The notes beneath the pieces were generated by a model. That model was not told where the DNA came from and searched no databases. It saw only the letters and a list, made by a program, of their open reading frames with translations. Of a stretch of 46,951 bases of DNA, positions 1,316 through 35,635 are shown in pieces. This DNA comes from Candidatus Scalinduaceae bacterium (GTDB taxonomy: Bacteria; Planctomycetota; Brocadiia; Brocadiales; Scalinduaceae). The stretch's first letter is position 1; every line of letters starts with the position of its first letter. The stretch spans positions 1 to 46,951 of the forward strand of contig JBHICG010000023.1 of NCBI GenBank assembly GCA_046759445.1, written 5' to 3'. A program made the translations under genes and the position numbers.

Positions 1316-1424
1316 GCTTTTATGAGCAAAACAAAACATTGTGATGTAGTCAAATTGAGTATTATAATTCCCTGCTTTAGTGAAGATAAAACTCTCAAAA
1401 AATGTTTAAAAGGGGTGCGAAAAA

Positions 1425-2576
1425 TTGCAGGAAATTAAAGAGGCGATAATATTAGCTGCCGGTTCAAGCAAAAGGATGGGTGAACTATGTAAATATAAAC
1501 CTAAATGTTTATTACCCTATAAAGATGAAGCTATTCTAGGAAGGATTATTCGTCAATTACAGGAAAATGGCGTAGAGAATGTAATAGTAAGTGTGGGATA
1601 CATGAAAGAAAGGATAAGGGAATATCTTAAAAACATAAAGGGGATTAACATATTAACAGTCGAAAATGACCGATACAAAGAAGATGTTAATATTTATTCC
1701 ATGAAGCTTGCTTTAAAGCAGGTAAAGGGGGCATTTGTAATTTTTGAAGCGGACACAGTCATGGAAGGCGATTTAGTTCAGTATGTAACCGGTTCTGATT
1801 TTGAAGGAAAATCTGTTTGGTTTACGAGGAGTCCATTTACTGAAAGACAATATGGAGGGATACTAAGATCAGATGAAAAGGGCAACATCATTGATATAAA
1901 AATAGTACAAAATTATGAAAAAGAATATAAGGGTTATAGAAAATTAACTGGTTTAATGAGGATAGCACAACATCAGCTTGGTACATTTAAAAGATTAGTA
2001 AACGAGTATGTAAGCAAAACGATTAAACAATATTACCTTATACCGTGGATTGAACACCTTGAAGAGCTGCCTTGTATAGAAGGCAATGTTGTGCATTATA
2101 AATTCAGAACATTTAATAAACAAGAAGAATATATGGAAATTTTAAATATGGAGTTTGATCAAAACACTTCAGCGGAAGAAAAGGTAAAATTGGCTAAAGT
2201 GGATGAACTAAAACATATAGAAGGATTTAATGAAGAAAGAGTAAAGTCATTAATTGAAAAAATTGAAAAAGAAGGTGTTTGGACCAAACCATTATACGTG
2301 GAAAAAAGTCATAATCTGGTTTTAGATGGCCAGCATAGGCTACAGGTAGCATTGAGACTAGGGATAAAATATGTTCCTGTACAATGTTTTAATTACAAAG
2401 ACGTTAAAATTTGGTCCCTTAGAAAAGAGGAAAAGGTAAATATTCCAACTATAATTAAAAAGGCAAATGAAGGGAAACCCTATCCATATAAGACGGTAAA
2501 ACACAAATTCCCAAATGTAATAAGTAAATGCGATATACCTCTTAATAGTTTAAAAAAAATAAGGAGGATACGTTAA
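1425..2576 (+). CDS. LicC-like nucleotidyl(cytidylyl)transferase fused to C-terminal ParB/Srx (SerK/SbnI-like) domain
   Basis: N-terminal IILAAGSSKRMG...PKCLL. C-terminal LKHIE...WTKPLYV...VLDGQHRLQVALRLG...YPYKTVKH. TTG start after AGGGG. Confidence 0.85.
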   Translation: MQEIKEAIILAAGSSKRMGELCKYKPKCLLPYKDEAILGRIIRQLQENGVENVIVSVGYMKERIREYLKNIKGINILTVENDRYKEDVNIYSMKLALKQVKGAFVIFEADTVMEGDLVQYVTGSDFEGKSVWFTRSPFTERQYGGILRSDEKGNIIDIKIVQNYEKEYKGYRKLTGLMRIAQHQLGTFKRLVNEYVSKTIKQYYLIPWIEHLEELPCIEGNVVHYKFRTFNKQEEYMEILNMEFDQNTSAEEKVKLAKVDELKHIEGFNEERVKSLIEKIEKEGVWTKPLYVEKSHNLVLDGQHRLQVALRLGIKYVPVQCFNYKDVKIWSLRKEEKVNIPTIIKKANEGKPYPYKTVKHKFPNVISKCDIPLNSLKKIRRIR

Positions 2577-2577
2577 T

Positions 2578-3234
2578 ATGAAATTAATCGTTTTAGCTGC
2601 CGGGCAAGGATTTAAATTGGATGGTTTCAATAAGTTACTAATAAAAGATCCTCGTACTGGGGAAAGGATATTGGATAGATATTTAAGACTCTTTGCAGAT
2701 TATGAAGTAATTGTTGTCGTTGGATTTAGGGCTATTGAAATTATGAGCGAATATCCCAATCTAAACTATATTTACAATGATCAATGGAGAATAACCGGTA
2801 ATAGCTATAGCCTTAGCTTAGCTTTGGATGAAACCCCCTGTGTGGTAATATCTGCAGACCTTTTGTTTGATGAGGACACGGTAAAGTTGATAGATGAATC
2901 CCCTGAAAATTCAGTTTTTGTTCTTCATTCTGAAAACAAAGGGATAAATACCTTAAGATGTAAAGTAAAAAAAAATATTGTAAAATCAATATACATGGGA
3001 GAAGAACCCAATAATGATTATGAAACAACAGGAATATATAAAATTACATATTCTAAAATATTAAGAAAATGGAAGAATGATTGCTCGGTTAATAGAAATG
3101 TTTTTGCTGGTTCAAATATTCCTGTAGATATTGACAAGCTATATGCAGTGGATATAAGTAGCTTTTTCTTCCATGAAATAAATACTCCATTAGACTACCT
3201 AAATCTAAAGGCTAAAATAGAGGAGATTAAATGA
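2578..3234 (+). CDS. LicC-like NTP transferase
   Basis: LIVLAAGQG, NDQWRITGNSYSLSLA, SADLLF and EINTPLDY motifs; RBS AGGAGG. Confidence 0.8.
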   Translation: MKLIVLAAGQGFKLDGFNKLLIKDPRTGERILDRYLRLFADYEVIVVVGFRAIEIMSEYPNLNYIYNDQWRITGNSYSLSLALDETPCVVISADLLFDEDTVKLIDESPENSVFVLHSENKGINTLRCKVKKNIVKSIYMGEEPNNDYETTGIYKITYSKILRKWKNDCSVNRNVFAGSNIPVDIDKLYAVDISSFFFHEINTPLDYLNLKAKIEEIK

Positions 3235-4478
3235 ATATAAGGACAATAACTATTGGATTGCCTGTAAGCAAAATAGTCCAACTAAGTGAGATAAAAACAA
3301 AGATAGAAAAGTTTTTAGATGATATGAGAACAGAGTGCGCAAGAAGAGAAATATTTATAAGAACATGTAGAATAAACTTAAGCTCTATACCTGAAAATCC
3401 GTACAAACACATAAATAAGCACAATATTATTGGAAAGATTGAACATGTCTCTAAACTGTGTGAAGCGTTGGATATAAGATGGTTTAATGTACCTTTTGAT
3501 CTTACAAAAGTGGGCGAAAAAGACTTAGAAACAATCGTCATGCTTGCCCTTGAGATCATAAAAAGATTTCCAAAAACTTTCGTAAATCTAATAGTAGCAT
3601 CTGAAAATAAAATTAAATACAGTGCGATAAATAAAGCAAGCAAGTTTATAAAGGAGATTTCAAAACTCGACAACTCAGGATATAACAATTTTAGAGTAGG
3701 TATTTCATGTAATATAAGGCCTAACACACCTTTCTTTCCATTTAGTTTCAGTTCTGAGAATGTAGGGTTTTCTATAGGTCTAGAACTTCCCCAGGAATTT
3801 GCAAAGATAATTAATGGTGCAAGTACAAATTGTCTCACATTAATAAGAAAAGAAATAATAAACAAGTTATTACCAGAAATAAGGGAGATTGATAATATTT
3901 CAAAGAAAGAAGAGGGGAAAAACTCAATAGTATTTAATGGGATTGACCTGTCATTAGCACCATATCCTGAAAAAGATAGTAGTGTTGCTGGTCTAATTGA
4001 ACAGCTCGGCCTTGAAAAACAAGGAAGCAACGGGACTTTATTCTTAACTTCATATCTGACAAACATACTAAAAACATTAAAGAAAAGAGGGAAAATAAAA
4101 AGTACTGGATTTAATGGAGTGATGTTTTCTCTTCTTGAAGATGATGTCCTGGGAAGAAGAAATAACAACGATGTTTATTCTATTGATTCATTAATTTCTT
4201 ATTCTGCAGTTTGTGGCTGCGGATTGGATATGGTTCCATTACCAGGAGATATCTTTGAGGAAGAACTATCTTCAATAATTCTTGATGTTGCTGCCCTATC
4301 AACAATCTTAAAGAAACCTCTTGGTGTTAGGGTACTTCCCATACCGATGAAACAAGAAAATGAGTTCACAATATTCAATATGGATTTTCTATTTAACACG
4401 AGAATTAAAAAGATTAAGAAAACTTGTTTTCTTAGCAACAATGGCAAAAATGAAGACTTTTCCTTTTTAAATGGCTAA
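3231..4478 (+). CDS. DUF711 (UPF0210, PFL-like fold) protein
   Basis: MNIRTITIG start, PFFP, GIDLSLAP, GFNGVMFSLLED, SAVCGCGLDMVPLPGD and KPLGVRVLPIP motifs. ATGA overlap with the upstream gene. Confidence 0.85.
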   Translation: MNIRTITIGLPVSKIVQLSEIKTKIEKFLDDMRTECARREIFIRTCRINLSSIPENPYKHINKHNIIGKIEHVSKLCEALDIRWFNVPFDLTKVGEKDLETIVMLALEIIKRFPKTFVNLIVASENKIKYSAINKASKFIKEISKLDNSGYNNFRVGISCNIRPNTPFFPFSFSSENVGFSIGLELPQEFAKIINGASTNCLTLIRKEIINKLLPEIREIDNISKKEEGKNSIVFNGIDLSLAPYPEKDSSVAGLIEQLGLEKQGSNGTLFLTSYLTNILKTLKKRGKIKSTGFNGVMFSLLEDDVLGRRNNNDVYSIDSLISYSAVCGCGLDMVPLPGDIFEEELSSIILDVAALSTILKKPLGVRVLPIPMKQENEFTIFNMDFLFNTRIKKIKKTCFLSNNGKNEDFSFLNG

Positions 4479-4513
4479 ATAATCTGCGACGCCTAAGGAA
4501 GGATTATGGAAAA

Positions 4514-6241
4514 ATGATTAATGTAAGAAAAAAATATAATTTTGTGTATATATGTTTAGATGGTGCGAGGAATTATTCTTCTCCCTGGAGTGGAAAAACA
4601 GGGGGAGGTTGTGGGAAACCTGAAATATTCGATGAATTTGCTAAGGAGGCCATTGATTTTAAAACAGCGGTATGTGCTGCTCCTAGTACGCTTATGTCTT
4701 TTAGCTCAACATTTTCAGGTTTTCCATGTGGATATTTGGCAAGAAACTTCATGGATTTCAAATTCGATCATAATGTTTTTGATTCATTAATTAGAGTTTT
4801 GAAAAAGAATAATTATCAAATATATACTCTAGAAGAATATGATTACGCTAGAAAGGTTTTAAAAGAGATGTATTTTCCTATTGATCAAGAATATTGGCCT
4901 AAAGGTTTACGTGAAGATAAAACTTGGAGTAACGAGGAGGTATTGAGTTTATTTGATAATTTAACAAAACAGGTAACCCTGAGAACCCCTTTTTCTTTAT
5001 TAGTACATATTAATGTTAGATTTGATAGGAATATTTCTCGAAAAGTCGCACATATATTAAATTACTTAAAAAAAATAAATGTTTATGATGATTCGATAAT
5101 TATTCTTTGCTCGGATCATGGGTGTCCTGATCCCGAACGAAACATCTCTAACAAGTTGTTAAGAGAAATAGGGCACGATCTAATTCTAACTGATGATAAT
5201 GTTCTTTTTGCTTTTTGTCTGAAGTATCCTGGTTGCTCTCCAAAATCAATTAAAACAGTGGTCAGTAGTTTGGATATAATGCCTACTGTTTTAGATTTAC
5301 TTGGATTTTCCTATGAAAATAAGATCGGTATTCCACTTAAGGGGAAGTCTCTTTTACCATTGATAGAAGGCGAGAACACAAAAGCATTTGATGATAGAAT
5401 TATGTTAACCGAGGCACGCTTTATTTCTCAGCCATTCAGAAGAGTTTCTTTAAGGGGAAATGATTTCAAGTATATTTATTTTTATGACGAGGAAGAAGAA
5501 TGCTTTTATGATTTACGGAATGACCCAAAGGAGGAGAATAATGTTATCGAGTCAACATCGCCAGCCGTTCAAAAAACCATTCAACGTTATCGGGAGGAGT
5601 TTAAAAGATACGAAACGGATATGCTGAGATTTCAGCATAAGTATTTGTTGCACTCTTTTCAAAAGGAATTTGACAGGTTAGTCAATGAAAATACTAGCTT
5701 AAAAAACAGTCACAATATTCTTATATTTGGAAGCTCAGATGTAGAATTTGCCAAAGCTCTGGTGACAGGCATTAATCAAAGATTGCCAAAAGCCAATGTA
5801 TATATGATATCTGTTAAGAATATTAAACGTAGGGATGAAATGAAGTTAGTTAAAAGCGAATTATTTAGTAATGATAATTATGAGAATAATGCTCAGAAGA
5901 TAATTCAATGGAGTCACACTAAAATATCAGATAGGGTTGATACTATTTTCTTACTTATGAATGATAGTTCAAAAACAGACATAATCAAAAAGATGCAAAA
6001 AATTGCAAAGAAGATTTCCCATAATATCGTTTATATAAACTACAATATGGAAATGAATATGCAGTTGAAGCGCAGGAAAATCTCTTTTGGAAGCAATCCT
6101 GACATACCTCTTTTTCTGCGAAGAGTATATAAATGGATTGGTTTCCATTATTACCGTCGCAACTGGTATAAGGATGATATCAAACTTACACTTAATCGAT
6201 GGATACCTCTCTTGCATCTAAAGACTTTTAGGAAAGAATAA
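4514..6241 (+). CDS. Sulfatase/alkaline-phosphatase superfamily hydrolase/transferase with extra C-terminal domain
   Basis: ICLDGAR, APSTLMS, SDHG, GH, LDIMPTVLDLLG, GKSLLPLI and YDLRNDPKE motifs. Confidence 0.8.
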   Translation: MINVRKKYNFVYICLDGARNYSSPWSGKTGGGCGKPEIFDEFAKEAIDFKTAVCAAPSTLMSFSSTFSGFPCGYLARNFMDFKFDHNVFDSLIRVLKKNNYQIYTLEEYDYARKVLKEMYFPIDQEYWPKGLREDKTWSNEEVLSLFDNLTKQVTLRTPFSLLVHINVRFDRNISRKVAHILNYLKKINVYDDSIIILCSDHGCPDPERNISNKLLREIGHDLILTDDNVLFAFCLKYPGCSPKSIKTVVSSLDIMPTVLDLLGFSYENKIGIPLKGKSLLPLIEGENTKAFDDRIMLTEARFISQPFRRVSLRGNDFKYIYFYDEEEECFYDLRNDPKEENNVIESTSPAVQKTIQRYREEFKRYETDMLRFQHKYLLHSFQKEFDRLVNENTSLKNSHNILIFGSSDVEFAKALVTGINQRLPKANVYMISVKNIKRRDEMKLVKSELFSNDNYENNAQKIIQWSHTKISDRVDTIFLLMNDSSKTDIIKKMQKIAKKISHNIVYINYNMEMNMQLKRRKISFGSNPDIPLFLRRVYKWIGFHYYRRNWYKDDIKLTLNRWIPLLHLKTFRKE

Positions 6242-6323
6242 AAAATTACGTATCATGAATTTTGATGGTGCAAAGAATTTTATTCAAAAATAAATATCTA
6301 TATCTCTATGCAACATTAGATTA

Positions 6324-7439
6324 ATGGAGAATTCAAAGTTAGATATTGACAACTCTAGCCGTATAGCTACCTCCTTTATATCTGTTGTGGCTATTATCGG
6401 GGTTGTTTATTATCACTTGGTACATTCACAGTTTTATATTGGGAAATACCCTGGTTGGTTAGACCTACAAAAAGTCATAATATTTTGGAAAGAAAATGGA
6501 TTCTTTTTTACATTAGTGGAAATACACAGTGGCTTTAGTGCGGTAATCGGTTTGTTTTTGATAATATCCGGTTATGGTCTTACAAAAAAGCATCAAGCGA
6601 CACACCCTTATTCATTTTTACTCAATCGTTTTAAGAAGATATATCTTTATTCGCTGCTTATGGCCATGATGTGTACTTTGCTCACATTTATTTTTTATCA
6701 AAAGTGGACTTTTAGTTATTGGTCTGCCTTTACTCTTGTTTATGGGTTCTATGATCAATTATCACGAGGTCCTGGTGTGGGTCAATATTGGTATCTTGCT
6801 ATACAATTCGCATGCTACCTAGTTTTCTTACCGATTAGGAATATGAATTCAATGAGCAATCTTTTGGTTTTGAGCTTGTTGATTGCCTTCGGCTTTGGAG
6901 TTTGTATACGTTTGGGGTTAGTGAATATAGTAAGTTTCTACCATTCCAGCATATGTAGATTTCCGGAGTTTGTGGCAGGCATGTTTTTGGCTAGGAGTAA
7001 AATATGCGAAGTAATAGTTTTTCGTTTTTCGTATCTTCGTTTAGCCTTTTCGATTATCTGGGTTGCGCTTGGTTGTATCTCCTTTTTCAACATTTGGACA
7101 TCTTTATATGCACACTTTGTCTTTTCTACTGGACTGTTCTTTTTTCTTGCTCAGTGCATTAATTTCCTGAGCCGATGGCCTTTGGTAACGATTATTACAA
7201 ACTATCTTTCAGGAGGGACTTTTACATTGTATCTTCTACATCTAGTTACTGTATTTCACATTTTTGGCTTTTTTAACAAACGAGTTTTTTCCCCTGTCAA
7301 AGAAATTTCCCACGTATATGCTGGAGTTGTCCAGTTCTTATCATTAGTTTTTATTGTTATATGTTGTGTAGGAATTCTTGTGATAGGGAGGAGGATAGAA
7401 TCATGGTATCAACTAAAGTTGAACCGACTGTGGCCCTAA
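6324..7439 (+). CDS. Acyltransferase family 3 (OafA-like) membrane protein
   Basis: Multi-TM protein with FLIISGYGL, RFKKIY, WYLAIQFACY, EFVAGM and YLLH motifs. Confidence 0.85.
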   Translation: MENSKLDIDNSSRIATSFISVVAIIGVVYYHLVHSQFYIGKYPGWLDLQKVIIFWKENGFFFTLVEIHSGFSAVIGLFLIISGYGLTKKHQATHPYSFLLNRFKKIYLYSLLMAMMCTLLTFIFYQKWTFSYWSAFTLVYGFYDQLSRGPGVGQYWYLAIQFACYLVFLPIRNMNSMSNLLVLSLLIAFGFGVCIRLGLVNIVSFYHSSICRFPEFVAGMFLARSKICEVIVFRFSYLRLAFSIIWVALGCISFFNIWTSLYAHFVFSTGLFFFLAQCINFLSRWPLVTIITNYLSGGTFTLYLLHLVTVFHIFGFFNKRVFSPVKEISHVYAGVVQFLSLVFIVICCVGILVIGRRIESWYQLKLNRLWP

Positions 7440-7588
7440 ACCTTTTGATTATGCTTACATTCTGTTGATAGTTTTTGGAATGTATTCACAGTTGATTAGT
7501 GTCATTATAGATTATGAAATAACTGTATATTTTTAATATTACATTAATTGTTAATGAGGTATGTAAATTTAAATTTTCGGGAATTAAG

Positions 7589-8512
7589 ATGGTAAATAAC
7601 TATGAACCTAAGGTTTCAATAATCGTTGCCGCATATAACGCCGAGAAGACAATTAAGCGTTGTATTGACGCTTTGCTGGACATGAATTATCCGGACTTTG
7701 ATATCATTGTGGTGGACAATAATTCTAAAGATGGAACTGCGAAAATTGTTAGAGAATACGTTAGAAAATACAGCAGTGTTACTTATCTGTTTGAAGCGAA
7801 AAAAGGATGGCCGGCTGCAAGAAATGCTGCAATTCGGTATGCCGAGACAGACTTTGTTGCAAATATCGATGCTGATTGTTTTGCTACTCAGGAGTGGTTG
7901 AAGAATCTTATAGCCGGTTTTACATCGGATGATATTGGTTGCATTGTGGGAAAGACCATTGTAGAGCCAGGGCAAACATTGGCTCAGCAATACTTTTCAA
8001 GCCCCAAAGCCTTTAATATAGAGCACCATATAGGTGTTAACCCTTATGTTCCTTGGGGTGGTGGGAATAATGTGTTTTTACGAAAAGTTTTTCTCGAGGC
8101 AGGCGGGTACAATGATGAGGAATTTACTTCAGGCGCCGATGCGGAATTTCATGCACGTATGGAAAAAATGACAGGTTATAAAACAGTTTATCAGGAAAGG
8201 GCACTCATTTATCATGTTGCAAGAGGGAGTTTGCGAGAATTTTTTGCTATACAAGTTAAATATGCGCATGATGGGTATAAACGTTCACGCATGCTACCTG
8301 AGATAAGGCCAAGATATAGTTGGTATATTTCTAAAAAAGTTTGGAATGGTTCTGTCAATTTGGCCGCTTTTTTTTATCGTTTAATTAAGTTCGTATATGG
8401 CAATGAAACAAAGTTACGTCTTGTTTCACCTTTGTTTAATATTGTTAGAGCATTTGGCGCAATCTATGGAAATTTGAGAGGAAAATTAAGGATGAAACCA
8501 GATAGGTTTTAA
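7589..8512 (+). CDS. GT2 glycosyltransferase
   Basis: SIIVAAYNAE, VVDNNSKDGT, ARN, IDAD motifs. Confidence 0.92.
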   Translation: MVNNYEPKVSIIVAAYNAEKTIKRCIDALLDMNYPDFDIIVVDNNSKDGTAKIVREYVRKYSSVTYLFEAKKGWPAARNAAIRYAETDFVANIDADCFATQEWLKNLIAGFTSDDIGCIVGKTIVEPGQTLAQQYFSSPKAFNIEHHIGVNPYVPWGGGNNVFLRKVFLEAGGYNDEEFTSGADAEFHARMEKMTGYKTVYQERALIYHVARGSLREFFAIQVKYAHDGYKRSRMLPEIRPRYSWYISKKVWNGSVNLAAFFYRLIKFVYGNETKLRLVSPLFNIVRAFGAIYGNLRGKLRMKPDRF

Positions 8513-8559
8513 GCTAATTACTGGATGAATGTAAAAACGTAATCTGAGGACGAATAATT

Positions 8560-9780
8560 ATGAAGTATGAAATTGTTACTGATTATCAAGCATTCCGTAA
8601 ATTGAGAAGTGAATGGAATGCTCTTTTAAGTAAAAGCCAGGCTAATACCATTTTTCTTACATGGGAATGGTTGGATGCCTGGTGGCAGTCTTATAGAGCG
8701 ACAGAACAGCCATTTATTATTCTTTGTAGGAATGTTCAAGGAGAACTGATTGGGATTGCCCCTTTTGTACTTAATGTAGTCAAAGGAGGTTATTTTTTCA
8801 AATATAAGGCTTTATATTTTTGGGGACTCAAGATAGGTGTGAAAGAGGCCGAATACTTGGAAATTATTGCTGAAACGGGAATGGAGGAGAAAGTTTGTCA
8901 TCAAGTGGTTCAGGCTTTAAATGAAAGACGTAAGGAATGGGACATATTCTTCTATTATGAAGTTCCTGAAACGTCTATTTGTCTCCAGATAATCAGGGAG
9001 TTTGTTGTAAACCATGGCTGGTTGTCTAAGGAAACCAGCCATGGTTGCTCAGTCATAAAATTACCTGAAACCTTCGATGAGTATATCAAAAGTTTGAAAC
9101 CAAGGATGAGGACAAAATTACGTTCTCTTCCCCGAAGACTCAAGGAAAGTCATAAAGTAGAGTTTGAGGTTTGTACAGAAAAAGACAAACTTCATGAATC
9201 TATGGATTCTTTTGTTGACTTACACCAAAAACGCTGGGAAGCGGAAGATCAATTTGGCACATTTAGAGACTCAAGGCGCATAAAGTTTTATGAAATGCTC
9301 TCTCGCTATTTTGTTGAAAACAACTGGTTAACAATCTTTTCTCTAAAAGTTGATGGTGTTTACCGGGCTCACGAATTCTGTTTTTTATATAATAATAGAT
9401 TATTTGTTTTACAAGAGGGGTATGATGTCGAGTGGGAAAGGAAGGGTGTAGGTAATGTACTGAGAACCTTTGTGTTGCAATATTGTATAGAAAATAATTA
9501 TGATGAATACGATTTCCTTGGTGGGGTAACATATCATAAAAATAGTTGGGGAGTTATTATAAAAAACAGCGTTTCCATTACAATAGGTATGAGAAATATT
9601 AAAAACATGATTTTCCTTTACGCTCCAACCGTTGTAGAAAAATTAAAGGGATTGTATAGGACAATTGTTCCTAATGCACTGGTACAATGGAGAATCGATT
9701 GGATTAACGCACGCAAAGCAAGAAATATTCAAAAGACTTTGTGTCGTAAAAGATCGTTAAAACAAGCCGTAAATAATTAA
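8560..9780 (+). CDS. CelD/BcsL-like GNAT (Acetyltransf_6) protein
   Basis: EWNALL...IFLTWEWLDAWW, LHQKRW, GYD...GVG and YDFLGG...K..W motifs. Confidence 0.85.
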   Translation: MKYEIVTDYQAFRKLRSEWNALLSKSQANTIFLTWEWLDAWWQSYRATEQPFIILCRNVQGELIGIAPFVLNVVKGGYFFKYKALYFWGLKIGVKEAEYLEIIAETGMEEKVCHQVVQALNERRKEWDIFFYYEVPETSICLQIIREFVVNHGWLSKETSHGCSVIKLPETFDEYIKSLKPRMRTKLRSLPRRLKESHKVEFEVCTEKDKLHESMDSFVDLHQKRWEAEDQFGTFRDSRRIKFYEMLSRYFVENNWLTIFSLKVDGVYRAHEFCFLYNNRLFVLQEGYDVEWERKGVGNVLRTFVLQYCIENNYDEYDFLGGVTYHKNSWGVIIKNSVSITIGMRNIKNMIFLYAPTVVEKLKGLYRTIVPNALVQWRIDWINARKARNIQKTLCRKRSLKQAVNN

Positions 9781-9794
9781 ATTTCTCACTTCTT

Positions 9795-9860
9795 TTAACA
9801 AGATTCTTACGAAGAAACAGAATAAAGAAGAAAACATATAAATCTTGTTAATCCTGTCTA
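9795..9860. repeat. Inverted 9-mer repeat arms (TTAACAAGATT / AATCTTGTT-AATCCTGTC)
   Basis: 11-bp perfect inverted pair at 9795-9805 and 9841-9851, with a tandem 9-mer on the right arm. Confidence 0.55.
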
Positions 9861-9883
9861 AAATTTTATAAAGGAAATAGGTA

Positions 9884-10846
9884 ATGCCTAGGGTCAGTGT
9901 TATTATACCTGCTTATAATGTAGAAAGGTATATTGGAGAAACTCTGGATTCTGTCCTGGTTCAGACCTATTCAGATTTTGAGGTAATTGTAGTAGATGAT
10001 GGTTCTAACGATCGAACTGCTTTCATAATAAAAAAATACCAAAAGAAAAATCCTGAAAAAGTAAGACTGATCCAAAAGGAAAATGCTGGGCCTGCAAGGG
10101 CCAGAAATGTAGGTATAAAGGCATCTACTGGGGAATATATTGCATTTGTCGACGCTGATGATCTTTGGCTTCCTGAAAAACTCGAAAAACAAGTTAGTTA
10201 TTTTGAAAAACAACCACCCCAAGTAGGTATGGTTTACACAAATGCTAAAAAGTTTGATCAACAAGGTATTTGGACACTTCCCAAAAGATATAGAAAAAAA
10301 AGGGTCGAGGGTTGGATTTATAAAGACTTACTAAGGGAAAATATGATCCCGAATCAATCTGTAATGGTTAGAAAAAGATGCTTTGAGAAAGTCGGCTTAT
10401 TCGAGGAATCTCTTGATATCATTGAGGATCACGATATGTGGTTAAGAGTCGCCATGAAATATGAAATTGCATTTTTAAATGAAGTCCTTTCGCTCTATCG
10501 TGAACATTCTCAAGGTAGAAGCAAAGGTGTTGAAAAAACAATGAAACGTGCTATAGGGGTGATGGATAAACATTTAAAAATGGCATTGGGTAACATTGAG
10601 CTTGAGGATACTATTAAAAGATCATTTTCACAACGGCTTTACGAATTTGGATATTTTTATTTGAAAGAGGGAAGGATGCTAGCAGCAAGACAAATGTTCG
10701 ACAGATCTTTAGCCATGAGTTTTTGTTATAAAACCCATCTGGCAAAAATAGCTTCCTTTTTCCCTTTGAGACTGCTTAATCTATCTAATAAATTGATCAA
10801 ATCAATTTTTAAACCCCCCATAATTGTAAAATCTAAAAATATATAG
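9884..10846 (+). CDS. GT2 glycosyltransferase
   Basis: SVIIPAYN, VDDGS, ARN, FVDADD, EDHDMWLR motifs. Confidence 0.93.
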   Translation: MPRVSVIIPAYNVERYIGETLDSVLVQTYSDFEVIVVDDGSNDRTAFIIKKYQKKNPEKVRLIQKENAGPARARNVGIKASTGEYIAFVDADDLWLPEKLEKQVSYFEKQPPQVGMVYTNAKKFDQQGIWTLPKRYRKKRVEGWIYKDLLRENMIPNQSVMVRKRCFEKVGLFEESLDIIEDHDMWLRVAMKYEIAFLNEVLSLYREHSQGRSKGVEKTMKRAIGVMDKHLKMALGNIELEDTIKRSFSQRLYEFGYFYLKEGRMLAARQMFDRSLAMSFCYKTHLAKIASFFPLRLLNLSNKLIKSIFKPPIIVKSKNI

Positions 10847-10870
10847 AAACCTTGTAACTGTTCAAGTATC

Positions 10871-10898
10871 CAGTAGTCAGTAGCCAGAATTCAGAATA
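10871..10898. repeat. Degenerate heptamer tandem repeat
   Basis: CAGTAGT-CAGTAGC-CAGAATT-CAGAATA. Confidence 0.6.
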
Positions 10899-11089
10899 GA
10901 ATGGGAATACGCCTCTAACAGCTTACTGGCTTCATCAAGTTGCAGTTCCAACCCTATTTAGTTACCCTATCCTAGGTCATGTGCCAGGATCAGGTAATAG
11001 CGAGCTTCTTTCAAAGAACTTATGTTATATTCAAATAGCGAACTACGTCTGCTTTGCCCTTTTTCTTAAATGCTAAGTTTTATAGAAAT

Positions 11090-11150
11090 GGTTGCGTGTT
11101 GCGAGTTGCGTGTTTTTTATATGTCTTAACCCGCAACTCGAAACGTGAAA
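11090..11150. repeat. Inverted heptamer repeat arms
   Basis: GTTGCGT-GTTGCGA-GTTGCGT followed, after a short spacer, by the complementary AACCCGC-AACTCGA-AACGTGA. Confidence 0.65.
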
Positions 11151-11328
11151 AACCATTATTCGTAGCAGTTCAACCCCTATCAAAAATTGGTAAGAAAAGG
11201 AGTTAACTCTTTAGAGTTTTATCTTGTTTATGTTTATTCTATAAGTAAAGAGCAGATAAATTGTGAGCGAAGCAAACTAAGTTCATATTAAGTAAAGTAA
11301 CATGAAACAATAACCATAGAGATTTGCA

Positions 11329-12708
11329 ATGAAGATTGCGTTAATTCAACCTCAAGATAACTCTGGCTACCCGCCTTTGAGTGTCGCCTATTTGTCTTCG
11401 TATCTTGAGACAAAAGGTTACAAGGTACGGGTTTTTGATCTACAAATCCCAGCACAACGGCAGTCATGGCAGAAAGATATTGCAGGATTCAATCCTGGTA
11501 TAGTGGGTGTAACAGCCATGACACCGGCGATAGTCAAAGCAGGTAAAATTGGTATCACATGCAAGAAAATTCTGCCAAAAGCTATACTTGTCCTTGGTGG
11601 GTATCATTTGAGCTTTTTGCCGGAAGAGACAATGCGACAGTATATGGTCTATGATGCTGGCGTGATTGGTGAAGGTGAAATAACTTTACACGAACTGGTG
11701 AATACAGTCGAACATGGGGAGAACTTTGATGAAGTGCAGGGTCTTATTGTGCGTAAAGGTAATGAATTGATTACAACAGGACAACGCGAGAGGATAAATA
11801 ATCTTGACAACCTTCCTTGGCCTCATAAACACTATGATCTGGACTATTATCTATGGTATGGAGGTTACTCTGATATCTGGACGTTTAAGTGTGCCAGCAT
11901 GATCGTTTCGCGTGGCTGCCCATTCAAGTGTCGGTTTTGTGCGTCACAGAGGTTTTGGTCAAAGAACTACAGGTACTGTTCACCTGAATATGTAATTGAT
12001 GAGATGAAATGGCTTTCGCGACATGGTGCACGAGCCGTTTATTTTCGCGATAGTACATTTACAGTTAACAAAAAGTGGCTTATGTCCTTTTGTGAGGAGA
12101 AGATGCGTGCTGGTATCAAGATGCGATGGATTTGCAATAGTCGTGTTAATACGATCACCGAGGAGGTTATAGTTGCGATGCGAGACGCAGGACTTGAAGC
12201 AATCTACTTCGGTGTAGAGAGTGGTAGCCAGCGTGTGCTCGATTACTATAAAAAAGGTACCACTGTAGAGCAGGCTCAAAAGGCCTTTGCCTTATGCCAC
12301 AAGTACGGGATTGCCACAGTAGCTTTCTTCATGATAGGCGCCCCGATCGAGACACGTAAAGATATCGAAGAAACCCGAAAATTTGCACACGAATTGAATG
12401 CGAAGTATACCCACTGTTTCATCTACACTCCATTGCCGGGTTCAGAACTGTACGATGATTTTATCAAGCACGGCTATAAGCCTGATTTTGAACATTTCAT
12501 CTTTAATCGTGCAGTGATTCCAATTGATGGAATATCCCCAAAGGATTTGGCCACCATCCATCAAAATATAGCGGGAGAATTTAAGCATTATCCAAACCGA
12601 GGTGAGTTATGGCAGCGACGATTCCAGATCATAAACTCAGTCCATTCTTTGCGTGACATATTGTACCTTACCGGAAGGCTAACACGCCGTATGGGTTTTG
12701 CTGGATAG
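11329..12708 (+). CDS. B12-binding radical SAM protein
   Basis: N-terminal cobalamin domain (YPPLS..YL, GGYH, GEGE), SRGCPFKCRFC and GVESGS. Confidence 0.92.
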   Translation: MKIALIQPQDNSGYPPLSVAYLSSYLETKGYKVRVFDLQIPAQRQSWQKDIAGFNPGIVGVTAMTPAIVKAGKIGITCKKILPKAILVLGGYHLSFLPEETMRQYMVYDAGVIGEGEITLHELVNTVEHGENFDEVQGLIVRKGNELITTGQRERINNLDNLPWPHKHYDLDYYLWYGGYSDIWTFKCASMIVSRGCPFKCRFCASQRFWSKNYRYCSPEYVIDEMKWLSRHGARAVYFRDSTFTVNKKWLMSFCEEKMRAGIKMRWICNSRVNTITEEVIVAMRDAGLEAIYFGVESGSQRVLDYYKKGTTVEQAQKAFALCHKYGIATVAFFMIGAPIETRKDIEETRKFAHELNAKYTHCFIYTPLPGSELYDDFIKHGYKPDFEHFIFNRAVIPIDGISPKDLATIHQNIAGEFKHYPNRGELWQRRFQIINSVHSLRDILYLTGRLTRRMGFAG

Positions 12709-12772: not shown

Positions 12773-14164
12773 ATGCGTATTACATTTATTCAACCTAAAA
12801 TGGGGATATATCCACCACTGAGTATTGGCTACCTTGCTGCCTATTTAGCCGACAGAGGTCACAAAGCCTTAATATTGGATCTTCAGATTCCGCATCAGCG
12901 TGAACACTGGAAGGAACTCCTTGTTGCGTCTCGTCCTGATCTTATAGGATTCACAGCATTATCTCCCAGTATAAGTCAGGCAGGGTCACTTGCAGCGCAG
13001 GCTAAAGAGTTTTTGTCAGATATTAAAATAGTTATAGGTGGTTATCATGCAACTATAGAGCCCAAACTTACACTACTCGAATACCCTGATTTTGATTATC
13101 TGGTAATGGGCGAGGGTGAGGAAACAATGGTAGAATTATGCGAACGATTGCAGGAAGGAAAAATGGTTTATGATATGACAGGTTTAGCATGGCGAAAAGG
13201 AGAGAGTATTGAACTTGGCACAACTCGTAAGCGTATTAAGGATATCGGCGCTCTGCCTCGACCACACGACTTTTATGAACTTGAATATTACCTTGATAAA
13301 GGCAGTTTTACACATCAATATGGTTTTGGATGTGCCTCTGTAATAACATCGCGTGGATGTCCCTTTAGCTGTCGTTTCTGTGGTATTCCCGATAAATATG
13401 TGATTCAATCAGTTCAGAATGTTGCCAAAGAAATTGAAGAACTATTACGACGAGGAGCTGAAGGAATATTTTTTCGTGATAGCACGTTTACGGTAAAACG
13501 TGAGTGGGTACTCGAATTTTGCGAGGAAATAATGCGACGTCGTTTACGTTTTCCATGGGTGGCCAATGCGCGGCCGGATCTGGTGGATGAAGAGCTGCTT
13601 TGTCAGATGAAAAAGGCGGGCTGCTTTGCCCTTTGCTATGGTGTTGAGTCAGGACAGGATCATATCCTTGAGTACTACGGAAAGTGTCATACAGTAGAAG
13701 ATACTCGACGGGCTATAGCATTAACAAAGCGTGTGGGAATTAGAATAGTTGCCTATTTTATGCTTGGTGCAATAGTAGAGACTCGTGCTGATATAGAAGC
13801 CAGTTACCAACTGGCCAGGGAACTTAATACTGATTGGACTATCTGGAAAATATTTATTCCTCTACCAGGTAGTGCAATTTATAACGAGTTTAAAGAGAAG
13901 GGGATATCCCTGGATTTTGATAAGCTTTTAACAGACAAGGCTACGGTTGCACTAGTTGACATGACTAAAGAGGAGATTGAGAAGCGGCATGACGAGTTAT
14001 CAAAAGAGTTCACGTATGTGCGCGATAACCGTTTAAGGGCATTCTTACGTCAAATGCGTCGAGTTGACTCTCCCAAGGATGCATTGCGACTTGGACAGCA
14101 TATAGCAAGAAGTGTAGGACGAAAGATAACAGCAAAATCATTTGCTCCGTCTAAATGTGATTAA
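12773..14164 (+). CDS. B12-binding radical SAM protein (paralog of upstream gene)
   Basis: YPPLSIGYL, GGYH, GEGE, SRGCPFSCRFC, FRDSTFTV and GVESG. DLQIP-x-QR is shared with the upstream gene. Confidence 0.92.
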   Translation: MRITFIQPKMGIYPPLSIGYLAAYLADRGHKALILDLQIPHQREHWKELLVASRPDLIGFTALSPSISQAGSLAAQAKEFLSDIKIVIGGYHATIEPKLTLLEYPDFDYLVMGEGEETMVELCERLQEGKMVYDMTGLAWRKGESIELGTTRKRIKDIGALPRPHDFYELEYYLDKGSFTHQYGFGCASVITSRGCPFSCRFCGIPDKYVIQSVQNVAKEIEELLRRGAEGIFFRDSTFTVKREWVLEFCEEIMRRRLRFPWVANARPDLVDEELLCQMKKAGCFALCYGVESGQDHILEYYGKCHTVEDTRRAIALTKRVGIRIVAYFMLGAIVETRADIEASYQLARELNTDWTIWKIFIPLPGSAIYNEFKEKGISLDFDKLLTDKATVALVDMTKEEIEKRHDELSKEFTYVRDNRLRAFLRQMRRVDSPKDALRLGQHIARSVGRKITAKSFAPSKCD

Positions 14165-14466: not shown

Positions 14467-14595
14467 AATATATTTGAAGCTTAGATTGAAATACTATAAC
14501 ATTTAAGCACAATATTCCATTATTCCAATTACTTTCAAAAAATCACGAATAACGAATCCAATAACGAAACTTGAATGAAGAAAGGAGAATCTTAT

Positions 14596-15792
14596 ATGAA
14601 AAATACAAAATTGGCACCGGCAGTTGTAACATACATGTCGTATGCTGGTCTGGGAATTGTTCGAAGCTTGGGCAGAAAAGGAATTCCTGTCTATGCAGTA
14701 GATTCTGATCCCAATAAGGTGGGAATGCAGTCCAAATATTGTACTCCTTTGATTTGTCCTGATATTAACGAATCAGAGGAAAAGTTTATACAGTTTATTA
14801 TTGAGCTTGGGAAAAAGTTTGACAAAAAAGCAGTCTTATATCCAACAGGAGATAAGATGGTGCTTACCTTCTCAAAATACCGGGAAAAGTTAACCCCGTA
14901 TTATCATTGTTTAATGCCAGATGATAATCTGGTTCGTTTTCTTGTTAGCAAAGATGGTCTGGATGAAATTGCACAAAAGTACAACATACCAGCTCCCAGG
15001 ACAGCTTTCCCAGAAAATGGAGCTGATATTGAGGCTCTATCCCGTGACTTTCAGTATCCTGTTATTATAAAACCATCTCTCTCCCCTAATTGGCACAATC
15101 CAGAAATTTACAAAATTGTTGGTAAAAGTAATAAAGTTGCTGTAGCTCATTCAAAAGAAGAACTTTTGTCTTTTTATAATCGTATTGCAGCAATTAATAA
15201 AGGGATGATTATCCAAGAACTTATACCGGGTTATGATGACCAGCTCTATTATGTCTGTCTTTATTGTGACAATAATTCTGAGCCAGTAGGGATTTTTGCA
15301 GGGCAAAAAATACGGTTGTTTCCAGTTCATTTTGGTAGCGCTAGCTATGTAAAAAGTTATTATGATAAGAAACTGATAGATCTGGCTGCAGAAATGGTAA
15401 AGAACATTGGATACAAAGGTTTGTGTGGAATTGAGTTTAAAAAGGATCCAAGGGATGAAACTTACAAGTTGATTGAGTTCAATGTGCGGTTTGGCCTATG
15501 GGACATGCTTGGAGAAAAGTGCGGCGTTGATCTGGCTTATAAGGCTTATAAGGATGCTATAGGACAGCCAATCAAAAAGAAGTGGAAATATAAAACCGGG
15601 ATTATATGGCTTGCAATACAACTGGATTTTGCAGCTTTCAGGAACTATCGGCGTGAAGGGCTTTTGTCACTATTGCAATGGCTGAAGAGTTTAGTAGGGT
15701 CTAAGTCATGTGCTGTTTTTGCTTATGATGACATGAGGCCTAGTTTTTCAACGAGTTATAGATTTTGGGAAAAAAAGTTAAAGTTTAAATAA
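14596..15792 (+). CDS. ATP-grasp carboxylate-amine ligase (D-aspartate ligase-like)
   Basis: GIVRSLGRKG, YPVIIKP, IIQELIPG, GIEFKKDPRD and LIEFNVR motifs. AAGGAG RBS favours ATG 14596. Confidence 0.85.
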   Translation: MKNTKLAPAVVTYMSYAGLGIVRSLGRKGIPVYAVDSDPNKVGMQSKYCTPLICPDINESEEKFIQFIIELGKKFDKKAVLYPTGDKMVLTFSKYREKLTPYYHCLMPDDNLVRFLVSKDGLDEIAQKYNIPAPRTAFPENGADIEALSRDFQYPVIIKPSLSPNWHNPEIYKIVGKSNKVAVAHSKEELLSFYNRIAAINKGMIIQELIPGYDDQLYYVCLYCDNNSEPVGIFAGQKIRLFPVHFGSASYVKSYYDKKLIDLAAEMVKNIGYKGLCGIEFKKDPRDETYKLIEFNVRFGLWDMLGEKCGVDLAYKAYKDAIGQPIKKKWKYKTGIIWLAIQLDFAAFRNYRREGLLSLLQWLKSLVGSKSCAVFAYDDMRPSFSTSYRFWEKKLKFK

Positions 15793-15937
15793 GAATTTAC
15801 AACCTAAAGACACAAATTAAAACTGAACACTAATTAACACAGATTTACTATGAAAGATAAATATAAAAATGAATCATAAGTTATCTATGTTAATATGCGT
15901 ATTTAATAAATGGAAAATCTTGGCAAAATAAAATCTG

Positions 15938-16747
15938 ATGAGTAAACCCTTAAAATTGGCTATTCTCGTCTATCACCAGATTGTGCCTGATGATTTCCCC
16001 CTGAAATTACTTCCTCTTGACGAACAACCATATTTTTCTAGATTGAGTGAGTTTTATTCTCATCTTGACTATTTAGTAAACAATAACTTTTCAACATTAA
16101 CTATTGATGAGATTGGTAATCCTAGAAAGGAAGAACAATCATCAAAAAAGATTGCTATTACTTTCGATGATGGTCAGATCAGTGATTATACTATTGCTTT
16201 TCCTGCCATAATTGAGAGAGAAATGAAAGCTACTTTTTATATTGTTACAGATTTTATAGGTAAAAAAGGTTGGTTGAACTGGGATCAGCTCAAGGAAATG
16301 CTTAGATATGGGATGGAAATTGGATCACATAGTTGTTCTCATCGTCGTCTGTTGGATTTGAAGAAAGAGGATATTCTAATAGAATTACAAAAATCTAAGC
16401 AAGTATTGGAAGATAGGCTCGGATGTTATATTCGATCTTTCACGACCCCTTTTGGCCTTGGGAACCAGAGTATTATGGAATTAGCATTGGAAGCCGGTTA
16501 TGAGACAATCTGTACTTCTGAGGTGAAGCTTACCCAAATTAATGTAAACAAATCTATATATGGCCGCATCGGGATTAGAAGAGGAGATAATGTAGAAAAA
16601 TTTAAAGGGATAGTGGAAAAGGAATGGCAAACTATAGGAAAACTGATTATTGAAGATCGAATAAAATCATTATTGAAGCAATTACTAGGACGACGTCTAT
16701 GGTATAAATTTAGTACTTTGATGATATCACAAAGTAAGAGTTTTTAG
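15938..16747 (+). CDS. Polysaccharide deacetylase (NodB/CE4)
   Basis: ILVYH, ITFDDG, ATFYI, EIGSHSCSH and PFG motifs. Confidence 0.9.
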   Translation: MSKPLKLAILVYHQIVPDDFPLKLLPLDEQPYFSRLSEFYSHLDYLVNNNFSTLTIDEIGNPRKEEQSSKKIAITFDDGQISDYTIAFPAIIEREMKATFYIVTDFIGKKGWLNWDQLKEMLRYGMEIGSHSCSHRRLLDLKKEDILIELQKSKQVLEDRLGCYIRSFTTPFGLGNQSIMELALEAGYETICTSEVKLTQINVNKSIYGRIGIRRGDNVEKFKGIVEKEWQTIGKLIIEDRIKSLLKQLLGRRLWYKFSTLMISQSKSF

Positions 16748-17395
16748 ATTAAGGCTAACTGCGTATTACTAGAAACCTCGAATACAATGGAATTAAAAAG
16801 AAAACATTAAAATTTTGTGCCCCTTAAGAAAATATTATCTAGTTTACAGATAAAAATATTTTAGAGAATAAAAGTAATCGGTCACAGGGTACGTACATAG
16901 GAGACATGCGGGGCTTTTAATATCCCGCAATAGTCGGAGGGAAGTATTAGAAGTTTAGTCTCAATATTTAAAGTACTGTTTTATGGGTAATATTTTCAGA
17001 AGCAAAGATTAGGAACGAGCCTAAAAGGTAAAAAGGGATTTTGTGCTGATTCCATAATAAACTCTTATATCTCTTTACGGAACCACGAAGGGTGATGATT
17101 CTATTTTCGTATCAAATATATGAGAGGGTTTATTACTGACATACAATTTTCACTTAATATCCGTTGAGGAAAGATATAAATACATGTAAGTAAGAGCGGC
17201 GGTTTCTAAAAGTGAAATTTCGTAGAAAGAGCTACTCCTACAGCGAAGAAAAAGCTTTCCACAACATAAATTACTTAATAAAATGTACAGTATTTCAAAA
17301 TGATTTGCGGCAATATTAAAACCTTAAGAAAATCACATAATAAATTGGTTTCAGGGAATAAACATATTATTTGAAGCTATATTTGTCTCATTTTT

Positions 17396-22702: not shown

Positions 22703-23068
22703 AGTTGCTCCATTTTTAAATAAATTTCTTCTTGATATTTGTCTTTTTTTTCAACATTCATTATTTAAAAATAATACAATTAATAAAAGAAAAATCCTTA
22801 AAGTAGTATTCTTAATTCAATTAAATTAGTAGCACGGGAATTTTTACTTTTTGTCGCAGATAATCAAAAATTATATGGATTTTAATAGTAACTCCTTATG
22901 TTTGTTAAAGCTACGTTCAATTAAAGTTCACAATAATGAACAAATAAGTATTATTTTAACAAGTATTAAAGGTTTGGACAGATAAATAGTTTCTTTAGGT
23001 ATTAATTTTGCGTAAAACTCTGTTAATAAATGATTTCCGTATGCTTAAATTATTGATTGAGGTATATC

Positions 23069-26389: not shown

Positions 26390-26493
26390 GGTTATTTACC
26401 AAACAAAGAAAAATGTATGTTATGTCCACTCTTTTGTGAGTCAACAACAAACCATAAAAGGGGCGGCTTGAAAGACGACTCTGAAGGGTAGGA

Positions 26494-26950
26494 TTATTTC
26501 CAAAGCTTGAGTTGAAACATAGCTAAGTCTTTTCTCAATTTCCGTCTTACATATTACAGATTTTATCCTTATAAATATCCATTGTGTTCATAAAGTACCC
26601 TTTTGTCTAAAAATGTCTGTCCCCAGGTATTAATTTTTCAATTCCATATACTTATTAAATATCTTGATAGCACTCTCACCTTTTAAAAAGCCCACTACTT
26701 CTGCAATCAAGTATTTTGGTGGACATTACAATACCAAGTAAATATGGTCTATTTGCACGTTTCTTTCCAATATCTCTACCTTTTTCCCCGCCAAAATGAC
26801 TTTGTCGGGCTGGCATTTGCATATTTGCTTTATTATAGTTCGTACCGAGTTACCAAATTCTCCATTTTAAAATCCTGAGTAGGTACTTTTGGCACCATAA
26901 TGGAACTTGCATACACACACTGCTTGTGCTAACTTATTAAAACTTTCCAT
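26494..26950 (-). mobile_element. tnpA: IS200/IS605 Y1 transposase pseudogene
   Basis: AGGAGG RBS, then MESFNKLAQAVCVCKFH...RILNGE...IKQICK...KKVEILERNVQIDHIYLVL*CPPKYLIAEVVGFLKGESAIKIF...KGYF...QLKLWK*, with several frameshifts and stops. Confidence 0.88.
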
Positions 26951-27001
26951 ATAATACCTCCTTTAGGGTTAAATTATTTCTATTATAATGAGGATTAGTT
27001 T

Positions 27002-32023: not shown

Positions 32024-32075
32024 TCATGAATTAAATCGGCTTCTTTTGATTTATTAAAAAGTAAGTGGAGAAAAT

Positions 32076-34512: not shown

Positions 34513-34642
34513 ATTAGATCCTCCTGAAATACTTTTCTGTGGTCACAAATTACTACAACCGCAACATGATGACTATCATGTAAATATGGGCAAATTTTAA
34601 CCTCTTCGATTTATTGTCACTCTTATATATTTTTTGTAACCA

Positions 34643-35623: not shown

Positions 35624-35635
35624 TACTTAGTTTCC

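Follow-up and report, generated by a model that had tools for sequence, protein, structure and literature searches.

A stretch of 46,951 nucleotides from a Candidatus Scalinduaceae bacterium (contig JBHICG010000023.1; we call this whole stretch the window) carries four open reading frames (ORFs), g1 to g4, on the plus strand between positions 1425 and 6241. Comparison of their predicted products with related proteins and loci leads us to a probable reading in which g1-g4 are a minimal version of a widespread cassette for the synthesis of a cytidine diphosphate (CDP)-activated head group, to be transferred as a phosphodiester. Pathways of this Kennedy-like kind, in which a head group is activated and then transferred, are known, but not with these enzymes. 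What distinguishes the window is a threonine-type sulfatase-fold protein, g4, in the slot of the transferase, combined with a minimal gene content from which a methyltransferase and a racemase are missing.

The four genes are tightly coupled. The first, g1 (1425-2576, +), starts with TTG and encodes two domains: an N-terminal LicC-like nucleotidyltransferase (1425..2174), predicted to be a CTP:phospho-X cytidylyltransferase (CTP, cytidine triphosphate), and a C-terminal, shortened SerK/SbnI-like ParB/Srx domain (2175..2576), predicted to be a small-molecule kinase. A gap of 1 bp separates it from g2 (2578..3234, +), a second, paralogous nucleotidyltransferase-fold protein, which overlaps by 4 bases (ATGA) with g3 (3231..4478, +), a DUF711 protein of a cassette-type subfamily with a ribonucleotide-reductase-like ten-stranded barrel. 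After a further gap of 35 bp comes g4 (4514..6241, +), which encodes a soluble sulfatase-fold member of the alkaline-phosphatase superfamily with a putative Thr nucleophile and a C-terminal alpha/beta domain and is a predicted phospho-head-group transferase. These junctions agree exactly with those reported in a first-pass annotation of this DNA. None of the four proteins has a hydrophobic segment (maximum KD19 1.5), and the G+C content of the cassette is 32.2% vs 37.0% for the genome.

In the mechanism that we propose, the SerK-like domain of g1 would phosphorylate a small alcohol, for which a hydroxy-amino acid (serine or threonine, for example) is the likeliest candidate, and the LicC-like domain of g1, possibly paired with g2, would join the resulting phospho-compound to cytidine monophosphate (CMP), yielding CDP-X. 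The DUF711 protein would bind the activated or phosphorylated head group in its barrel and alter it, probably next to an N-methylation step. Thr59 of g4 would then attack CDP-X, release CMP and pass phospho-X to a hydroxyl of the glycan made by the neighboring glycosyltransferases. The racemase-like and N-methyltransferase-like genes that neighbor related cassettes point to a hydroxy-amino acid, and serine is a plausible head group; since the window lacks both genes, its head group would be unmethylated. What we observe is the anatomy of the genes, their domains and conserved residues, and their co-occurrence, fusion and splitting across loci; from these we infer each step of catalysis and the nature of X and of its acceptor. 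The order of kinase, cytidylyltransferase and phosphotransferase had been put forward in the first-pass annotation, and it gains comparative support from an invariant glutamate in the ParB/Srx domain, from fusion and splitting of the LicC-like domain and from the TagF-like, LicD and CDP-alcohol phosphatidyltransferase (CDP-OH_P_transf) genes that neighbor related cassettes.

We collected 87 related loci: 7 of full length came from species genomes, and 80 came from metagenomes, where the ParB-like domain served as the anchor. The scan of species-genome contigs with g1 alone gave no match, and alignment A1 was swamped by a generic motif, with 7 true loci among the 80 kept. Neighbors were called with tblastn at E <= 1e-6 and coverage >= 0.4, and were counted only over loci with enough flank. 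The first-pass annotation had proposed as a test that the genes should co-occur elsewhere, and they do: beside the ParB-like domain we found the g1 N-domain in 64 of 68 loci, g2 in 56 of 65 and DUF711 in 49 of 50. Two further genes recur, a class I S-adenosylmethionine (SAM) methyltransferase (42/47) and an Asp/Glu-racemase-like gene (25/41). As a rule, the genes run g1, g2, DUF711, methyltransferase, racemase, transferase, and they occur together far more often than chance would allow.

The last gene of the cassette varies. Among 42 loci that were long enough or had a match, it is TagF-like alone in 22, LicD alone in 6, g4-like in 6 (L113, L128, L138, L147, L158 and L165) and mixed in 2; the remaining 6 had none by tblastn. 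Pfam searches of these six revealed CDP-OH_P_transf in three (L129, L154 and L093, where it is fused to the methyltransferase in a 471-aa protein) and LicD in L111; in L112 and L114, neither tblastn nor Pfam found a last gene. Overall, a TagF-like gene occurs in 24 loci and LicD in at least 8. TagF-like proteins, LicD and CDP-alcohol phosphatidyltransferases are defined by CDP-alcohol donors, and this is the strongest argument that the core of the cassette makes a CDP-activated head group. The g4-like gene occupies the transferase position in L128, L138, L147, L158 and L165 and lies beside the core in L113; it stands where racemase and TagF-like genes stand elsewhere, and none of the six g4-type loci has the racemase. 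Its presence at the site of the other transferases fits g4 acting in the transferase slot with a CDP-activated donor. The 13 neighboring genes examined in L128 and L165 comprise UDP-glucose dehydrogenases, Wzz, Wzy, GT4, an epimerase, a methyltransferase, a flippase and one ORF without a family; scanned with Pfam, these 13 included no other candidate phosphotransferase and no ATP-grasp protein. The cassette locus L002 encodes a different sulfatase-family protein (7347-9137, +; 596 aa), with the TagF-like gene on one side and the methyltransferase on the other; in this protein, Pfam matches residues 241-495 only, and tblastn shows no likeness to g4.

By our comparison, the described system that works most like the cassette is FtaABCD (CD0241-CD0244) of Clostridioides difficile, which the first-pass annotation did not name. 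The Fta reports describe a CDP-threonine route to phospho-N-methylthreonine on flagellin glycans, both for Fta and for PA1088-PA1091 of Pseudomonas aeruginosa. For Fta, CDP-threonine, N-methylation by FtaC and transfer by the TagF-like FtaD are shown experimentally there (bioRxiv 10.64898/2026.02.12.704994). FtaC is a CDP-threonine N-methyltransferase and FtaD moves phospho-N-methylthreonine to N-acetylglucosamine, while FtaA (HAD, ThrH-like) and FtaB (a nucleotidyltransferase) are proposed to make CDP-threonine (bioRxiv 10.64898/2026.02.12.704994; PMC10714395). Fta and the cassette share a logic, in which a phospho-amino acid is joined to CMP, a class I methyltransferase acts on the amine and a TagF-like protein transfers the product to a sugar. 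They differ in their enzymes: Fta relies on a ThrH-like HAD protein and a plain nucleotidyltransferase and has no ParB/Srx domain, second nucleotidyltransferase, DUF711 or sulfatase-fold protein, whereas the window lacks the methyltransferase and the TagF-like transferase. An FtaA-type HAD protein, an FtaC-type methyltransferase and a TagF-like FtaD were all absent from the window, to which the HAD search was confined, and tblastn found no cassette-type methyltransferase in the window's genome. Literature searches returned no publication on the set of g1, g2, DUF711 and sulfatase-fold genes, and found CDP-threonine only in the Fta papers; the first-pass annotation, too, had not recognised the combination as a described pathway.

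Loci that mix elements of both systems connect them. We searched for the cassette methyltransferase in 401 genomes of the family of L002, labelled Lachnospiraceae, and found homologues in 13, at 28-40% identity outside the genome of L002 itself. One locus (L188, 6869-12043, -) combines nucleotidyltransferase, HAD, racemase, methyltransferase, rSAM-SPASM and TagF-like genes, is flanked by Glyco_tranf_2_5 and lacks g1 and DUF711; by tblastn, its racemase-like protein is 43% and its TagF-like protein 36% identical to those of the cassette. Another (L193) has the methyltransferase, HAD and nucleotidyltransferase. By our analysis, these two loci have the FtaABCD architecture, their orthology to Fta being judged by architecture only. 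A third kind of front end appears in L190, L194 and L195, where the methyltransferase is paired with nucleotidyltransferase and aminotransferase genes and LicD is close by (in L194 by tblastn only); in L190 (7610-11141, -), a LicD-methyltransferase fusion (574 aa) adjoins a nucleotidyltransferase-aminotransferase fusion (621 aa). In L198, g1 itself accompanies the methyltransferase, racemase and TagF-like genes. These mixed contexts indicate that no fewer than three different front ends feed one back end, consisting of methyltransferase, racemase and transferase. Such displacement of front-end modules suggests that the product of g1 and DUF711 is a CDP-linked amino compound near CDP-threonine or CDP-serine.

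The LicA/LicC/LicD pathway has the same order of kinase, cytidylyltransferase and phosphotransferase, and phosphocholine cytidylyltransferase LicC (1jyk) is the nearest solved relative of the g1 N-domain. The cassette differs in using a ParB/Srx kinase fold and not a choline-kinase fold, and DUF711 and g2 have no counterpart in the Lic pathway. No LicD, choline kinase or phosphoenolpyruvate (PEP) mutase family matched among the 32 window ORFs scanned with Pfam, as the first-pass annotation had noted, and neither LicD nor Glyphos_transf was found in the whole genome of the window (97% complete). A comparison with CDP-2-glycerol (gtp1-3) was dropped; the passages of PMC1391919 consulted are silent on folds.

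Both parts of g1 resemble enzymes of small-molecule activation, in line with the earlier description of a LicC-like transferase fused to ParB/Srx. Residues 7-124 match NTP_transf_3 (Pfam, E 7.7e-14), and the match to 1jyk has an E value of 6.4e-12. The nucleotidyltransferase signature GxGxR(L/M) and the following Lys are present; LAAGxSxRM, PK and EAD are invariant in 30 homologues. We therefore predict that this domain is a CTP:phospho-X cytidylyltransferase. In the C-terminal domain, residues 251-370 give weak NCBIfam matches to SerK and SbnI, and a profile built from this domain alone (A2) matches SerK (5x0b, E 2.1e-11) and SbnI (5.3e-8) ahead of ParB (3.3e-6), placing it nearer to SerK and SbnI than to true ParB proteins. 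Glu266 of g1, invariant in 30 of 30 homologues, aligns with a SerK residue that reads as Q in 5x0j and A in 5x0e, and which we take to be the catalytic base. DGQHR and YPYKTVKHKF are likewise invariant in the 30 homologues, and the latter, at the tail of g1, aligns with SerK residues 204-241. The domain thus has in common with SerK (5x0b) and SbnI (5uje, 5ujd and 6nr6) the ParB/Srx fold, the aligned Glu, DGxHR and the C-terminal PKT..H..F; it differs in its size of about 130 residues, the missing SerK middle part, its fusion to a nucleotidyltransferase and scores below the NCBIfam cut-offs. A small-molecule kinase is the activity that these similarities predict.

Homologues of g1 are widespread. 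We found 277 at E <= 0.001, some of them 606-622 aa long, with Anaerolineales, Verrucomicrobiota, Deltaproteobacteria, Prevotellaceae, Butyrivibrio and Ruminococcus among their source labels; one (P0065) is labelled Butyrivibrio fibrisolvens. Coriobacteriaceae, Paceibacterota and Kofleriaceae are further source labels for the cassette. The two domains can be encoded separately, as in L128 (N-domain of 246 aa, ParB-like domain of 135 aa) and, judged from ORF layout alone, in L147 and L165. They can also be joined with g2 in a three-domain nucleotidyltransferase-ParB-nucleotidyltransferase fusion (L093, 607 aa; P0017, P0022, P0024 and P0025).

The second gene, g2, also matches NTP_transf_3 (Pfam, E 3.8e-9) and is 30% identical to the g1 N-domain across 150 residues. 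It had been described as a second LicC-like transferase: the nucleotidyltransferase fold stands, but "LicC-like" is loose, as the best solved relative is a MobA-like protein (3d5n). Positions conserved in the family (43 sequences) are D15, G16, W70, D94, Y139, G141, E149, K155, E200, N202, D206 and Y207. The nucleotidyltransferase of the Fta-like locus L188 scores higher against g2 (37 bits) than against the g1 N-domain (23 bits), and loci from gut Firmicutes and Actinobacteria lack g2 altogether. Possibly, g2 pairs with g1 for the synthesis of CDP-X.

DUF711, named as the third gene in the first-pass annotation, is confirmed by a strong match of g3 to PF05167 (225.6 bits vs a gathering score of 25). 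The predicted structure (predicted local distance difference test, pLDDT, 92.3) is nearest to 2ha9, with a template modeling (TM) score of 0.77; the next folds are exclusively ribonucleotide reductases of classes I-III (query-normalized TM 0.28-0.47), and an ECOD grouping quoted in PMC4390871 agrees with a ribonucleotide-reductase-like fold for DUF711. Residues invariant in cassette DUF711 proteins are R4, T7, T45, R47, N/F/R153-155, E185, D239-x-S241, S300, E303-D304, C328-G-C330-G-x-D333 and K362...R367, and this grouping of basic with acidic residues suggests that the substrate is anionic and perhaps bound to a metal. The UPF0210/DUF711 protein SP0239 (2ha9) has the same fold and shares the DLSLAP, ED and C..GLDM motifs with g3, but its identity to g3 is only 17-18% and it has Val at position 330, making the second invariant Cys (C330) specific to the cassette subfamily. 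UPF0210/DUF711 proteins are usually paired with an ACT-domain protein, whereas the genomic partner of g3 is g1.

An exhaustive search of 1.84 billion representatives yielded 1380 relatives of g3 at E <= 0.001 and 244 at E <= 1e-30. Among the best 150, all 5 representatives longer than 600 aa are DUF711-methyltransferase fusions, and L171 encodes such a fusion of 634 aa. We found no DUF711 fusion longer than 728 aa, which is weak evidence, and a search of the ESM Atlas for look-alikes of g3 outside PF05167 gave no usable match. Gene order and the recurring methyltransferase fusion place the DUF711 step beside N-methylation; the reaction could be an epimerisation, an elimination, a decarboxylation or another type.

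The g4 family is rare: a library of 5.8 billion clusters yielded 42 proteins at E <= 1e-5. Pfam matches of g4 to Sulfatase and SGSH_C are confined to residues 174-375. In the model (pLDDT 88.1), the catalytic domain runs to about residue 345 and is followed by a long helix (350-392), a Rossmann-like alpha/beta domain (401-509) and terminal helices. All 35 aligned sequences have R19, A56, S200-D201-H202-G203 and H221-D222, while conservation of D16, P57 and S58 is 90% or more and position 59 is Thr, or Ser in 5 of the 35; the metal ligands D16, D201 and H202 are kept. Foldseek places the model nearest to S1 sulfatases (query-normalized TM 0.43-0.50, E about 1e-18 to 1e-16) and a phosphonate monoester hydrolase. 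T59 coincides with the formylglycine-forming Cys/Ser of the C/S-x-P/A-x-R motif in all four profile alignments listed; the Pro and Arg positions of this motif are not kept, with Met/Leu and Ile/Ser-like residues in their place. These N-terminal alignments are singly weak (i-E 2.6e-4 to 12) and mutually consistent. With T59 at the nucleophile position and the formylglycine motif missing, g4 is best read as a Thr-type superfamily member in a sulfatase scaffold. Its earlier description as a soluble Thr-type protein therefore holds, and no N-terminal membrane domain is present (maximum KD19 1.30).

Within the superfamily, Thr or Ser nucleophiles mark the phosphoryl-transfer members LtaS, EptA and NPP. 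Enzymes of the LtaS/EptA/MCR type share with g4 the superfamily, a Thr at the nucleophile position and the Asp/Asp-His metal ligands, and LtaS and lipoteichoic acid (LTA) primase are among the sequence matches of g4. LtaS/EptA-type enzymes are, however, membrane-anchored and extracytoplasmic and take the head group from phospholipids, whereas g4 has no membrane segment, is nearer in fold to S1 sulfatases and belongs to a cassette predicted to make a nucleotide-activated donor. The formylglycine sulfatases of family S1 (choline, carrageenan and glycosaminoglycan sulfatases) are the best fold matches; compared with them, g4 lacks the C/S-x-P-x-R motif, has Thr/Ser instead and carries an extra C-terminal alpha/beta domain. 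In one relative, P0154 (749 aa), the g4-like catalytic domain is fused to a GARS-type ATP-grasp domain, a fusion that is either real or an assembly artefact.

The kinship of g4 with sulfatases and phosphonate monoester hydrolases, its closest relatives by fold and sequence, raises the alternative that g4 is a hydrolase, be it a phosphodiesterase, a pyrophosphatase or a phosphatase, and serves to trim, recycle or edit the head group, with the transferase encoded elsewhere. The genome has five CDP-OH_P_transf matches, and a CDP-alcohol phosphatidyltransferase on contig C65, where two of them lie beside a g1-like nucleotidyltransferase, could fill that role. The P0154 fusion and the ATP-grasp genes downstream in the window would also suit a hydrolase, which recalls amide-linked amino-alcohol pathways that end with a phosphatase, as in Campylobacter jejuni HS:2. 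We nevertheless consider this alternative unlikely: g4-like genes sit exactly at the TagF-like/LicD/CDP-OH_P_transf site, the 13 neighbors scanned in L128 and L165 offer no other transferase or ATP-grasp gene, and a Thr nucleophile without a formylglycine motif is typical of phosphoryl-transfer members. A second alternative concerns the ParB/Srx domain, which might be a CTP-binding or regulatory module and not a kinase, leaving the cytidylyltransferase to use a phospho-compound from central metabolism such as O-phosphoserine. This domain is indeed shorter than SerK and scores far under the NCBIfam cut-offs; yet the Glu at the position mutated in 5x0j and 5x0e is invariant, the C-terminal SerK motif is kept and the domain profile ranks SerK and SbnI above true ParB proteins, which makes this second alternative quite improbable in our judgment.

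Two further alternatives concern the product. The head group could belong to a lipid or glycolipid and not to a glycan, given that three related loci use a CDP-alcohol phosphatidyltransferase, from a membrane family best known from lipid synthesis, and that the Fta preprint places an FtaB homologue in a lipid-synthesis region of Methanobrevibacter (bioRxiv 10.64898/2026.02.12.704994). The window cassette, however, lies directly before two GT2 genes, acyltransferases and a polysaccharide deacetylase, g4 is soluble, and g4-type loci carry Wzz, Wzy, GT4 and flippase genes, so that a lipid destination seems very unlikely. Activation of a phosphonate, as CMP-aminoethylphosphonate in PntC-type systems, might be suspected from the match of the g1 N-domain to PntC-type 6pd1 (E 3.2e-8), a weak match to the Sden_1164 family (31.4 bits vs a cut-off of 300) and two downstream B12-radical SAM genes that match PhpK-type P-methyltransferases (133 and 120 bits, cut-off 600). 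We rejected this reading and give it almost no credence, as the window has no PEP mutase and all phosphonate scores fall far below cut-off. The sole PEP_mutase-family match in the genome lies on another contig, the family also matches in 11 of 14 control genomes, and the Pfam scan of related-locus neighbors showed no PEP_mutase.

Our preferred reading, synthesis of a CDP-activated head group by g1-g3 followed by transfer through g4, has to be held against a series of findings that weigh against it. Support for every predicted step is comparative. All nearest solved folds of g4 are hydrolases, and the known Thr-type transferases of its superfamily are membrane-anchored and use lipid donors. The g1 C-domain scores 31.5 bits for SerK (cut-off 380) and 31 for SbnI (cut-off 350), and SerK residues 121-203, approximately, have no counterpart in it; it is thus a shortened SerK-like domain outside the SerK and SbnI equivalogs. 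An archaeal SerK-like protein is reported to bind CTP and not ATP (PMC12704722), so a ParB/Srx domain need not be an ATP-dependent kinase. At the GxGxR..PK positions, the g2 family (43 sequences) has no Arg or Lys conserved at 90% or more. The match of g3 to NCBIfam PRK05313 reaches 130 bits against a cut-off of 440, marking a divergent subfamily, and two loci (L144 and L198, an 11-kb contig) have g1, methyltransferase and transferase without DUF711. DUF711 is accordingly dispensable or encoded elsewhere there, and it looks like a tailoring or alternative-supply step that CDP activation itself does not need. The related loci are not independent, with near-duplicates such as L131/L132, L161/L162 and L128/L147. 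Among 60 relatives of the window's organism, we found no g1 orthologue and no cassette; the best non-self match to g1 there (59 bits) covers the nucleotidyltransferase part only. Finally, no flippase, polymerase or priming transferase family matched among the window ORFs scanned.

The surroundings of the cassette are rich in glycan genes. As the first-pass annotation had it, acyl- and glycosyltransferases follow directly on the plus strand, assigned here with Pfam: Acyl_transf_3 with 8 hydrophobic segments (6324-7439), GT2 (7589-8512), an Acetyltransf_6 GNAT protein (8560-9780) and a second GT2 (9884-10846). Upstream, a promoter-like hexamer pair (TTGTGA-18-TATAAT, 10/12 matching; 1339..1368, +) lies about 57 bp 5' of g1 and is a candidate only; the promoter/terminator scan as a whole was not above chance, with 36 sites vs 43.7 expected. 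Further downstream, the two adjacent B12-binding radical SAM genes (11329-12708 and 12773-14164, +) have generic BchE as their best NCBIfam match (213 and 174 bits). An ATP-grasp gene, a polysaccharide deacetylase and an ATPgrasp_ST ("sugar-transfer associated") gene follow (14575-18541, +), hinting at amide-linked substituents on the same glycan. Beyond these glycan genes lie a 1110-aa protein with an fn3 domain and an 867-aa GH123-like protein (23057-29605, +), then a carbamoyltransferase (361 and 243 bits) and a small SxtJ-family protein (30206-32495, +). A complete-looking Tad/Flp pilus operon occupies the opposite strand (33535-44541, -), encoding a TPR protein, two TadB/C-like T2SSF proteins, the TadA ATPase, a ParA-like ATPase, TadG/TadE-like proteins, a secretin, RcpC/CpaB and a prepilin peptidase. 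Such an operon identifies the organism as a diderm. Elsewhere in the genome, contig C65 (positions 3100-11350, approximately) has a g1-N-like nucleotidyltransferase (30% identity) near two CDP-alcohol phosphatidyltransferase matches, which may be a second CDP-alcohol system of the same genome.

CDP-amino acids have only recently been shown to be donors for glycan modification, in one system, the flagellin of C. difficile. The cassette suggests that many phyla carry out CDP-amino-acid chemistry and do so with different enzymes; if this is true, CDP-amino acids are not peculiar to two flagellin systems. It also offers a first testable function for DUF711/UPF0210, of which a structure has existed since 2006 with no known role in bacteria or archaea, and likewise for the shortened SerK-like kinase and the rare Thr-type sulfatase-fold family. 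Cultured carriers exist (P0065, Butyrivibrio fibrisolvens), making these predictions directly testable. A soluble Thr-type transferase fed by a CDP donor would be new, and g4 would add an unrelated solution beside the TagF-like, LicD and CDP-alcohol phosphatidyltransferase families. We entertain, tentatively and with more doubt than confidence, a bolder proposal: g4 would found a class of soluble, cytoplasmic alkaline-phosphatase-superfamily transferases that draw a phospho-amino-acid head group from a CDP donor via a covalent phospho-threonine, DUF711 would be a radical-free enzyme acting on a CDP-linked substrate, and CDP-amino acids would be common surface building blocks across many phyla. 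Phosphodiester-linked charged groups on surface glycans shape antigenicity and recognition by phages and hosts.

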